From: a virus
Taxonomy: Duplodnaviria; Heunggongvirae; Uroviricota; Caudoviricetes
Reading direction: 5' to 3' (one strand)
Length of the DNA stretch: 18,739 nt
IMG/VR virus record: IMGVR_UViG_2648501730_000002
Span: 1 to 18,739 of that record
Numbering within the stretch: the stretch's first letter is position 1; every line of letters starts with the position of its first letter. The position numbers are program-made. Shown in pieces: positions 15,201 through 18,200 of the stretch.

Positions 15201-18200
15201 TGCAGCCGATACCATACGGCATTTAGCGGCATTCATCGTACACTCAACGGTTAGCTCTTCATTCGTGGCATTCACCTGAAAGGTCCGGGAGTGTAATTGC
15301 GTACATTTACCACTGAACGAACCTTCAACAAGAACACGACCACGCTGCAAAATACGGAACGGAATTGTTCCCTGAAAAGGCTTTACGGTTACCAGTAATT
15401 TCTTCATGCATTCTCCGGATAACAAAAATACTAGTTAATACACTGAGTACGGATATATTCCTGAAGCATTCTCAATGCAGCCTGGTCGCTGATGATTCCG
15501 TCTCTGATACCGAGAACGTTTCGTCCAGCAACCGGAGAGAGTTCGACGGCGGCATCATTGCCCACGCCGGAGGTGCCGGTGGCTTCACGCACGGTACCGG
15601 AGCAGGTGGCGTTGATCCGCAGGCGCTTACGACCAGCGGCAACATCAGCACGCAGAGTTTCATTTTCAGCTCTCGCATCGGCTAATTCCCTCGAGTATTT
15701 TGCATCGAGCGCAGCAACATCGCGCTGGCGCACCTGCATATCAGTAATGGTTGCGTTTGCCAGCTCCAGCTCTCTGGCTTTTTTATCGCGCTGCGCTTTG
15801 TAGGTGATGGCGTTATCGCGGTAATGATTCAGCCCCAGACTAAGCGCACCACAGACCACCAGCAGAATAACGGTAAACGCGGAAAGCATTCGGTTTATGC
15901 TCACCCCAGCAGCCCCGACGAAGATAACATCATCCAGCCCATGGAAAGAAAAAGAGCAACCAGCATTAGTGAAAATGAAATGCCGACGATTACACAGAGG
16001 ATCTTCGCCAGCATTATGAGTTTGTCTGACATGTTTAATCCTCTTCACGATTTCAACGCAATGACCAGTTTTGCCAGCCCATACAGCATCGGAGACACAG
16101 CAATACCGACCGCCACCCACTTAATAGCAAAAGCCTGTGCTCTGCTGATGTCATCAGTTACTGGCGCTTTCAGTTCAAGGCCGTTTTTCATAGTCAACCT
16201 CAACAGAATTCGTTTATACTTTTCCATGTTCTCCCTTGCCTTATCCAAGGTCAGAAACACAAAACCCCGCTTGCTGCCAACAAACGTGGTTTTTACTTTT
16301 ATTCACTTAGGTTTTGCCAGTTCGCAGGATTTCGTGTTATCCGTCCGCGTTGGCCAACGTCATTTTTCAGCAAAATATTCTGCTTATCTGTCGATACCCC
16401 AGCACGCCAGCGCGCTCTCCTGGTCACGACGGGATACCTGACCATAACAGTTATTTGAGCGGATACGGCAGTCTCTGCCACCGTCTTTAATCCACCAGCG
16501 AATCGCCTCGCATGCACCCCGGCGATCGCCTGCATTAATTCGTTTATAAAACGTCGACGGGAAACACTTACCGGGGCCAATGTTATACGGGCAGAATGAC
16601 GCGATCCCCGCTTTCTGGGGTTCAGTCAGTGGCACTTTGATGTTTTTCTCCACCCATGCCAGCGCCTTATCACGTTCGATGGCGTTAACCTGGTCGCATT
16701 TCTCCTTCGACAACTTCATGCCCGGGACGACAGGTTTACCATCCACCAGAATGGCACCGCGACAGATGGTCCAGATACCCGCGCCATCACGGTATGCCGT
16801 GGTGTGGTTACCTTCCTTTTCATCCAGAAACTGGTCGAGAATGTCAGGCGCAGGCGCACCAGCGGCAATCAGCGCCAGAACGGCAGCCGACAGGCCGTAT
16901 TTGATTTTGGTGTTCATGGATATTTATCAGGATTTATCGGTTCCGAATCCCTGGATATGTTAAGTCTTCAGCCCGCCAGTGGTGGGCACTGGTGTTTTAC
17001 CTGATGGCTGAAATATATCTGACAATTCCCGTCGAGGATTTAGCAATGTATAACGATGAACATAAATATACCGCCTGCATGCAGGCCATGAATGAACAAT
17101 TTAAATCAGCATTCCTTAAACTCATTCAGCAAAACCACGAAGCAGTAAAATCCATTCAGGCTGAGCCGTATGGACACCTCACACCACCAACTCTCGACAT
17201 TATGTCCAGAATATTAACACCAGCCATGCTTCTACGTCTGAAAGACAATATAAATGACTGGTTAAACGAAGAATTAAACTACCTTGAATGTGAGTGGGAT
17301 CATCATTACGCCAAATCACAAAAAGAACGCATCTTCCGTCGATTATCCGGCAACAGATAACGAGCCAGCTTATATACGTCCTTTAAGATAAGTCAGTCCT
17401 GGATGAAACCAGTAAGCCGGCACTTTTTTAAAGGGCGGATTATCAAAATCACGAAGAAGAGCCTCCCGCACAACTGCATCCTTGTCCGCACCACTGGCCA
17501 GCGCTTCAATCTCAGCAGCTACCTGCAGATATCCCATGCAACGACCAATGCGCTTCATTAGTCCCTGCTTTTTATTGTTCTTCAGGTAATCAATGGCAAA
17601 TTCAATGAGCGCCTCACTGTGCTGGTGCGATGCTGGTGTTACTTTTCCATCTTCACGGATCGTGATATTCCAGTCATCGCTTGTCACAATAAAAGATGGC
17701 CGATTATCCCCCCATTCCTGGTCTTTATCCGGTGCAGACGCAATAAAATAACGTTTATTGCCTTCCTCTCCGGCACTTTTAACTGTAATGGAGTACTTTT
17801 CTGACAATGCGGTCGGTAAAAACTTTTCCTGCAAAATCTTCGCAAAGGTCCTGCGAGCAATTTTGATGCAATCATCGTAAAACGCTGCTTCCTGCTCATC
17901 GCGGCGTTTTTTTTCATCTTCAGAAACCATCAGCACCGACAGTTTTTTATTCAGTTCAGTGATTTCATTTTCCAGGCAACTTATGCGCTGATTCATTTCT
18001 TCATGGTTCATCGTCTACTCTCCCCGCGCCGCCTTACGCCGGTCTTCTCTGATTTTGAAATACAGGTTCGTCAGGTACGTCAGCAGACCAAACAGCAGAC
18101 TCCCCAGCACGCCTATTGCCACCCACTGGGACGGAGAGACTTTGTCCAGCAGCTGCAGTAACCAGTATCCCGTCCCCACCGCTGACGTGGTGTATGACAC

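Follow-up and report, generated by a model that had tools for sequence, protein, structure and literature searches.

Two small membrane-protein genes between R and Rz of a lambdoid lysis cassette, probably separate cistrons whose shared reading frame is incidental

Between the endolysin gene R and the spanin gene Rz of IMG/VR virus record IMGVR_UViG_2648501730_000002 (Caudoviricetes; 18,739 nt, the whole of which is called the window and supplies the numbering used here) lie two tandem open reading frames (ORFs), ORF1 of 60 amino acids (aa) and ORF2 of 43 aa. We conclude that these are very probably two separate genes, and that the reading frame they share in the window is a coincidence of a 2-nt insertion or deletion (indel) without function. 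The lysis genes of this part are all on the minus strand. An earlier note, made from the sequence alone, had placed the pair in a 494-bp gap between the endolysin stop and the Rz start, a figure that proved exact on recount (R stop 16386..16384 to Rz ATG 15889). It had left three options for the pair, namely, two genuine small membrane proteins, an approximately 105-aa protein with two transmembrane (TM) segments that was inactivated by a nonsense mutation, or a stop-codon readthrough gene. Read on the gene strand, the gap consists of about 100 nt of conserved noncoding sequence, a hairpin, a Shine-Dalgarno (SD) sequence and ORF1, a spacer, ORF2, 11 nt, and then the Rz ATG.

The spacer of the window is 12 nt long, AGAGGATTAAAC, and this places ORF1 and ORF2 in one frame with a single TGA between them, just as had been described. 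Related loci carrying both peptides were then gathered from IMG/VR, and their junctions were compared. A 14-nt spacer was found in 56 of the 65 distinct contexts that had both ORFs, and the 12-nt spacer in the other 9; an exact-pattern scan of IMG/VR detected the 14-nt form in 105 contigs and the 12-nt form in 36. The shared frame therefore occurs in only about 14 to 26% of related loci. The 14-nt spacers read AGGGAGGATTAAGC or ended in ..AAC, with one carrying AGGGAAGA, and the 2-nt difference falls inside the ORF2 SD, which is AGGGAGGA in the 14-nt form versus AGAGGA in the 12-nt form. With 14 nt between them, the two ORFs fall in different frames, and both are still intact, so that this polymorphism provides a clean natural test of cistron independence. 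The earlier note had proposed checking whether the TGA is a sense codon in related prophages; among the 65 distinct contexts, ORF1 ended in TGA in every one.

A single two-TM protein of about 105 to 108 aa, either inactivated by the TGA or made by reading through it, is thus barely credible. Its support comes from the in-frame arrangement in the window and in 9 of the 65 related contexts and from a 96-aa protein in which the TGA has become GGA. Nevertheless, both the nonsense-split and the readthrough versions need a conserved frame, which the majority allele lacks, and both were rejected for this reason. The 96-aa protein was the only true ORF1–ORF2 fusion, a singleton on one 979-bp contig, whereas the fused peptide, used as the query against 5.8 billion proteins, retrieved almost exclusively ORF1-type proteins (59 to 71 aa) and ORF2-type proteins, each on its own. 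Two 105-aa proteins (P0050 and P0051) turned out to be unrelated upstream sequence joined to ORF2 and not ORF1–ORF2 fusions. Furthermore, no context, with or without ORF1, lacks the SD and ATG of ORF2, and each ORF is found without the other. UGA is the leakiest stop codon in E. coli, and a trace fusion product made by UGA readthrough is possible in the 12-nt alleles, where it would be incidental at most. By contrast, the option of two genuine small membrane proteins was supported by ORFs that were intact across alleles, had their own SDs, were selected in frame, and occurred independently. The earlier note had named free indels and stops in related prophages, with no conserved frame, as evidence against its reading; in these prophages both ORFs were conserved, intact, and under purifying selection.

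Selection was most evident for ORF1. Among 26 unique nucleotide alleles, the ratio of nonsynonymous to synonymous polymorphism (pN/pS) was 0.17 in the annotated frame versus 0.84 and 2.08 in the other frames, and the annotated frame contained no stop, whereas the other two contained many. ORF1 proteins from E. coli, E. marmotae, and Salmonella had 78 to 95% identity, with the frame undisturbed. Judged from this sequence variation, ORF1 is a real gene under clear purifying selection. An exhaustive HMMER profile search of 1.84 billion representative proteins determined a family of 21 representatives of 20 to 87 aa, sharing the pattern (Y[KR][KR]..R[LI]).MKNGLE.DAP......A.AFAI+..A....YG.A.L..A and ending in KS/LK or IRWW; no confirmed relative was found in a scan of species-representative genomes with the ORF1 alignment. 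ORF1 would have 71 aa if started at GTG 16260 in place of the ATG. Its C-terminal hydrophobic helix spans about residues 31 to 58, with a best 19-aa Kyte-Doolittle (KD) window of 1.90. The AlphaFold2 (AF2) model consisted of just two helices at moderate overall confidence, residues 3 to 14 and 23 to 59, joined by a loop that covers the MKNGLE.KAP motif; the predicted local distance difference test score was about 82 at residues 23 to 59. Hydropathy, flank charges, and the AF2 model together predict a tail-anchored protein with its N terminus inside, in which a basic N-terminal stretch of about 30 residues precedes the C-terminal TM helix. The 60-aa ORF with a C-terminal TM helix and its own SD, AGGGAG, of the earlier note was thereby borne out by sequence, hydropathy, and model.

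ORF2, likewise described beforehand as a very hydrophobic 43-aa ORF with its own SD, AGAGGA, was indeed predicted to be a single very hydrophobic helix (best KD window, 2.89), and its SD lies in the spacer. Its pN/pS was 0.36 for codons 1 to 26, versus 2.00 and 0.72 in the other frames, but constraint was weak over the remainder (0.65 for codons 27 to 43; 0.57 overall). ORF2 is probably a real gene as well, though less constrained than ORF1. The 3′ third of ORF2 covaried with the downstream Rz allele, which places a recombination joint within ORF2, and some prophages had an internal frameshifting deletion in ORF2, which fits a gene that is dispensable in prophages undergoing decay. These last two features, together with the weak constraint and the narrowness of the family, which was confined to Enterobacteriaceae, would also fit an ORF2 that is not a functional protein, acting instead as a leader or coupling element for Rz or persisting through recent common descent, with ORF1 the only real gene. 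This is quite unlikely, given that ORF2 stayed open with a conserved ATG, a strong SD, and a constant length of 43 to 44 codons in three upstream contexts and beside several diverged Rz alleles. Moreover, diverged 3′ thirds, such as the STAWRVLTLSGLVG form versus another 14-letter form, retained length, frame, and hydrophobicity, and codons 1 to 26 were under selection in the ORF2 frame only.

The independence of the two ORFs was further seen in their distribution. ORF2 without ORF1 was found directly before Rz and after ant in Shiga toxin (Stx) phages, in which it carries the annotation of a hypothetical coding sequence of 153 nt, and it was also found after a 31-aa TM peptide. Conversely, ORF1 or its short relatives occurred without ORF2 directly before Rz in phage GER2, in Salmonella, and in two further loci, L003 and L046. 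The E. coli variant L003 had the order hairpin, 31-aa peptide (..LIVAIKG), ORF2, the C-terminal half of ORF1, a 28-aa peptide MSAELIRAMAFAIRIVAIAVLVWAIRWW that matches the ORF1 PHROGs, and Rz. The short relative in Salmonella, P0132, from a very common prophage remnant, lies 1 nt before a PF03245 gene. A 95%-identical ORF1 was present in a different cassette that comprised two holins, an M15 peptidase endolysin, a 93-aa protein, ORF1, and a 60-aa lipoprotein, with no annotated Rz. The Qin cassette of K-12 has no R–Rz gap at all. From these comparisons, the R–Rz slot is a mosaic of small membrane-peptide cistrons, and ORF1 and ORF2 are independent and portable; since Qin lacks the gap and ORF2 is frameshifted in some prophages, they also appear to be dispensable. 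Their habitual place in the lambdoid phages of enterobacteria is immediately before the genes of the outer-membrane step. Among 71 distinct contexts, there were 65 in which the Rz start either lay 7 to 11 nt beyond the ORF2 stop (11 nt in the window) or shared 4 nt with it.

Several side observations were made on these relatives. In L044 (1465..1874) and in L247 of phiSTEC1575-Stx2k (1974..2331), whose cassettes have two holins and an M15 peptidase endolysin but no annotated Rz, an ORF1-family gene is immediately followed by a gene for a 60-aa lipoprotein, with an ATGA overlap in L247. This lipoprotein belongs to phrog_7528 and has the lipobox LLVGC and three Cys residues in a mature part of about 29 aa, and the two genes may be an unrecognized pair of the outer-membrane step. 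In L010 and L022 a 311-aa ORF replaces Rz 7 nt after ORF2, and from its N terminus, MKCVLYSGDCLDV...DPPY, it looks like a DNA methyltransferase. A metagenomic contig (L391, 325..737) encodes two tandem small TM peptides of 59 and 46 aa, both ending in AAIRWW, upstream of a gene that was portal-like as judged from its translation only; the second peptide matches a PHROG annotated as "membrane protein" in the category "moron, auxiliary metabolic gene and host takeover." Such peptides are also present as tandem copies away from lysis cassettes.

As to function, ORF1 and ORF2 are very probably independent cistrons in the late (lysis) operon of a lambdoid phage, each with a predicted small single-pass inner-membrane protein as its product. 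The Q-antiterminated late transcript would read through the hairpin after R and carry ORF1 and ORF2 together with S, R, and Rz/Rz1. Expression from this transcript is the simplest assumption because the gene strand showed no promoter-like site between R and Rz, and ORF2 was not followed by a terminator. Each ORF would be translated from its own SD, and ORF2 and Rz are probably translationally linked, because ORF2 ends 11 nt before Rz in the window and 7 to 11 nt before it in most contexts. Both products would insert into the inner membrane and modulate when, or how efficiently, the pinholin, endolysin, or spanin step proceeds. We put at roughly 40% the probability that they are dispensable inner-membrane lysis accessories, acting most likely at the spanin step, which is favored by their conserved juxtaposition with Rz. 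A more specific proposal is that ORF1-family proteins and ORF2 are undescribed regulators of the lysis cassette, tied to the outer-membrane step as small inner-membrane partners of the Rz TM domain (TMD) or, where a cassette lacks Rz, of a small lipoprotein, and that they set when or where spanin-type fusion fires. It would account for the way in which cassettes of unrelated architecture repeatedly couple these genes closely to the Rz start, but we regard it as unlikely.

Several observations weigh against a role in lysis. The weak constraint on ORF2 has been given above. Distant ORF1 relatives adjoin tail-fiber, capsid, or portal genes and not lysis genes, and the lysis link of ORF1 may thus be positional only. 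Literature searches brought up no account of the ORFs in work on lysis cassettes, Stx-phage genomics (PMC8136144), or spanin diversity (PMC6139136), nor any mention of them in work on enterobacterial microproteins (PMC11188072) or in ribosome profiling of enterohemorrhagic E. coli, supplements included (PMC4765031). Base composition also differs, with 45 to 46% GC for the intergenic region, ORF1, and ORF2 versus 54 to 55% for R, Rz, and the holin gene (46% for the module versus 55% for R and Rz).

A GC content lower than that of the neighbors is a moron trait, and the main rival to a lysis role is that ORF1 and ORF2 are moron-type cargo, an acquired module that rides the late operon and serves superinfection exclusion, host fitness, or nothing. 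Besides composition, this explanation draws on the hairpin that bounds the module, on the R–Rz slot carrying other cargo (ant) in Stx phages, on the distant ORF1 relatives in non-lysis late-gene positions, and on the moron category to which the PHROG of the related L391 peptide is assigned. The lack of a gene-strand promoter-like site and of a terminator after ORF2, however, makes independent expression in a lysogen unlikely; the hairpin stands upstream and not downstream of the ORFs, and close coupling to the Rz start recurs for both ORF2 and the short relatives of ORF1. Moron-type cargo is therefore a tentative alternative that we consider doubtful. Far less probable is a type I toxin-antitoxin-like system in which ORF1 and/or ORF2 is a depolarizing toxin controlled by an antisense RNA from the plus strand. 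Both peptides are small and hydrophobic, and a promoter-like plus-strand site at 16191..16220 points at the hairpin, which has T-runs on both strands, a geometry suited to a short antisense RNA over the ORF1 SD. Nevertheless, that site is at the level of chance (1 found versus 2.1 expected), no toxin match was obtained in Rfam, PADLOC, Pfam, or NCBIfam, and no promoter for a toxin mRNA was found. In addition, the TM helix of ORF1 is at the C terminus after a polar part of 30 residues, and the Hok, Ldr, TisB, Ibs, and Zor toxins are not known to be built in this way. The position in the late operon, moreover, explains expression without a dedicated system. A role as lysis accessories remains our working model of the pair.

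The intergenic region between R and ORF1 was also characterized. Conservation of the approximately 100 nt after the R stop extended to Stx phages, which have ant and not ORF1 as the downstream cargo, and each cargo type carried a terminator-like hairpin of its own. The hairpin of the window is conserved in alleles and forms the 5′ boundary of the ORF1/ORF2 module with its lower GC content. The intergenic RNA (16228..16383) had a folding z-score of −5.0 versus shuffled sequences, but no two-sided covariation was found in 40 alleles, and its structure is putative. No Rfam match was obtained over 15300..17100 at a permissive E-value. The plus-strand site mentioned above is sigma-70-like, TAGTCA-18-TATACT, and lies antisense within codons 2 to 12 of ORF1, facing the two-way hairpin. 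A 205-aa antisense ORF on the plus strand (15824..16441), which extends over both small ORFs, was judged spurious, since it is open in the 12-nt alleles only (108 stop-free codons across the pair) and broken in the 14-nt alleles (70).

The pair was readily located in existing databases. ORF1 matched phrog_1115 over its full length (residues 1 to 60; E = 5.9e-42), and also phrogs 4493 and 3246, and ORF2 matched phrog_4906 over residues 1 to 43 (E = 3.1e-21), likewise a full-length match to the hidden Markov model. In RefSeq, prophages of E. coli, those of O157:H7 among them, have a "hypothetical protein" at each of these two positions, listed as WP_072095843 and WP_001303555 for ORF1 and as WP_001280927 and WP_001280929 for ORF2. 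Of 5426 complete E. coli genomes, 2131 (39%) matched at least part of a 551-bp region that surrounds the pair, with 6583 matching places in all and up to 12 per genome; at least 80% of the region was covered in 989 of the 2131 genomes. ORF1 and ORF2 are therefore among the most widespread uncharacterized genes of lambdoid and Stx-phage lysis cassettes. They are also ordinary, already cataloged phage membrane-protein genes of unknown function, and as they are annotated in thousands of E. coli genomes and placed in PHROG families, the pair has little value as a discovery. Searches of Pfam, NCBIfam, and PADLOC with both peptides and with the fused peptide gave no family for ORF1 and sub-threshold matches only for ORF2, in keeping with the statement of the earlier note that neither peptide was recognizable as Hok, Ldr, TisB, Ibs, or a holin.

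The features of the cassette, which is of the lambdoid pinholin/signal-arrest-release (SAR) endolysin lysis type, are listed in Table 1; the terminase genes come after Rz. In other prophages a YdfR (DUF1327) gene occupies the slot between holin and lysozyme. The dual-start motif of the holin is MYQM in the window, with no basic residue between its two Met codons, and the longer product may therefore not act as a charge-based antiholin. The dual start of the phage 21 holin is MKSM. The motif GCAGAATATTTTGCTGAAAAATG that follows the R stop (16361..16383, minus strand) recurs after the lipoprotein gene in L044 (about 1880..1905), and because the same motif is found at both places, it is a recurrent joint between mosaic modules.

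Table 1. Features of the lysis cassette and the R–Rz interval, in gene order
Feature	Position	Strand	Remarks
Class II holin, phage-21 type, 71 aa, starts MYQMEK	18015..18230	-	Cassette head; PF04971, E 4.2e-32; RefSeq "class II holin family protein," 216 nt
213-aa ORF between holin and lysozyme, unknown function	17373..18011	-	phrog_1085; 44% GC
R lysozyme, upstream neighbor	16384..16917	-	PF00959, E 1.3e-24; N-terminal weakly hydrophobic SAR-type segment, KD window 1.74
Terminator-like hairpin between R and ORF1, A-/T-run flanks, AAAACCACG..CGGGGTTTTGTGTTT	16255..16294	-	Terminator-like site 16286..16268
ORF1 SD AGGGAG, 3 nt before ATG	16231..16236	-	Kept in intergenic alleles
ORF1, 60 aa, ATG 16227, stop TGA 16047..16045	16045..16227	-	phrog_1115; RefSeq WP_072095843; pN/pS 0.17
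ORF1–ORF2 spacer, 12 nt, AGAGGATTAAAC, contains ORF2 SD AGAGGA	16033..16044	-	Site of 2-nt length polymorphism
ORF2, 43 aa, ATG 16032, stop TGA 15903..15901	15901..16032	-	phrog_4906; RefSeq WP_001280927
Rz (i-spanin), downstream neighbor	15431..15889	-	PF03245, E 1.2e-39
Rz1, embedded in Rz	15472..15678	-	Lipobox LVVSAC

Finally, the two ORFs were compared with known small membrane proteins. They resemble the type I toxins Hok, Ldr, TisB, Ibs, and ZorO in size and hydrophobicity (43 and 60 aa; KD 2.89 and 1.90), but differ from them in having neither a family match nor a dedicated promoter that could be found and in lying inside a late operon. With the Rz/Rz1 spanins they share some traits, in that the TMD of ORF2 is N-terminal, as in an i-spanin, and its gene is closely coupled to Rz, and ORF1 followed by a small lipoprotein gene, as in L044 and phiSTEC1575-Stx2k, recalls an i-/o-spanin gene pair. 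An i-spanin function was nonetheless rejected, as the residues beyond the TMD number only about 8 to 14 in ORF2 and 2 in ORF1 and the true Rz (PF03245) is the next gene; having no periplasmic domain, neither product would be able to bridge the periplasm.

The pinholin S21 of phage 21 (PF04971) is comparable to ORF1 in that the ORF1 helix is weakly hydrophobic like its TMD2 (KD 1.90 versus 1.83), and the local similarity WVA[VI]G..S..L.GL links the two sequences in a single BLASTP pair (E = 0.001). Unlike the pinholin, ORF1 has one TMD and not two, and it lacks a charged C-terminal tail. Kinship of ORF1 with pinholin TMD2 was rejected, since neither the Pfam holin model nor the ORF1 profile search of 1.84 billion proteins gave a link. 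A holin or pinholin identity was rejected as well, because no Pfam holin matched either ORF at an E-value of 1 or below, the C-terminal flank of ORF1 is "KS," and that of ORF2 is uncharged. In protein P0085, from a 554-bp contig, residues 1 to 36 of the holin are joined to the C terminus of ORF1 at the shared WVAVG motif; this chimera, which together with the BLASTP pair had suggested the kinship, is probably a deletion or an assembly artifact across the short identity.

The "releasin" gp25 of phage Mu is a small membrane protein of 99 aa (DUF2730) that frees a SAR endolysin, and it has an N-terminal TMD, an N-out/C-in orientation, and an acidic cytoplasmic domain of about 70 aa (PMC9239132). 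Like gp25, ORF1 and ORF2 are small single-TM products encoded within a few genes of a SAR-type endolysin, dispensable for enzyme activity, and not holins. ORF1, however, has 60 aa, a basic N-terminal part, a C-terminal TMD, and no Pfam match, and nearly identical ORF1 copies, in contrast to the setting of gp25, also accompany a non-SAR M15 endolysin. A Mu-type releasin was rejected for ORF1 on account of this opposite architecture and of the missing DUF2730 or other Pfam match. The PHROG families phrog_1115 and phrog_4906, which have no assigned function, are by comparison the same families as ORF1 and ORF2, with no difference in sequence.

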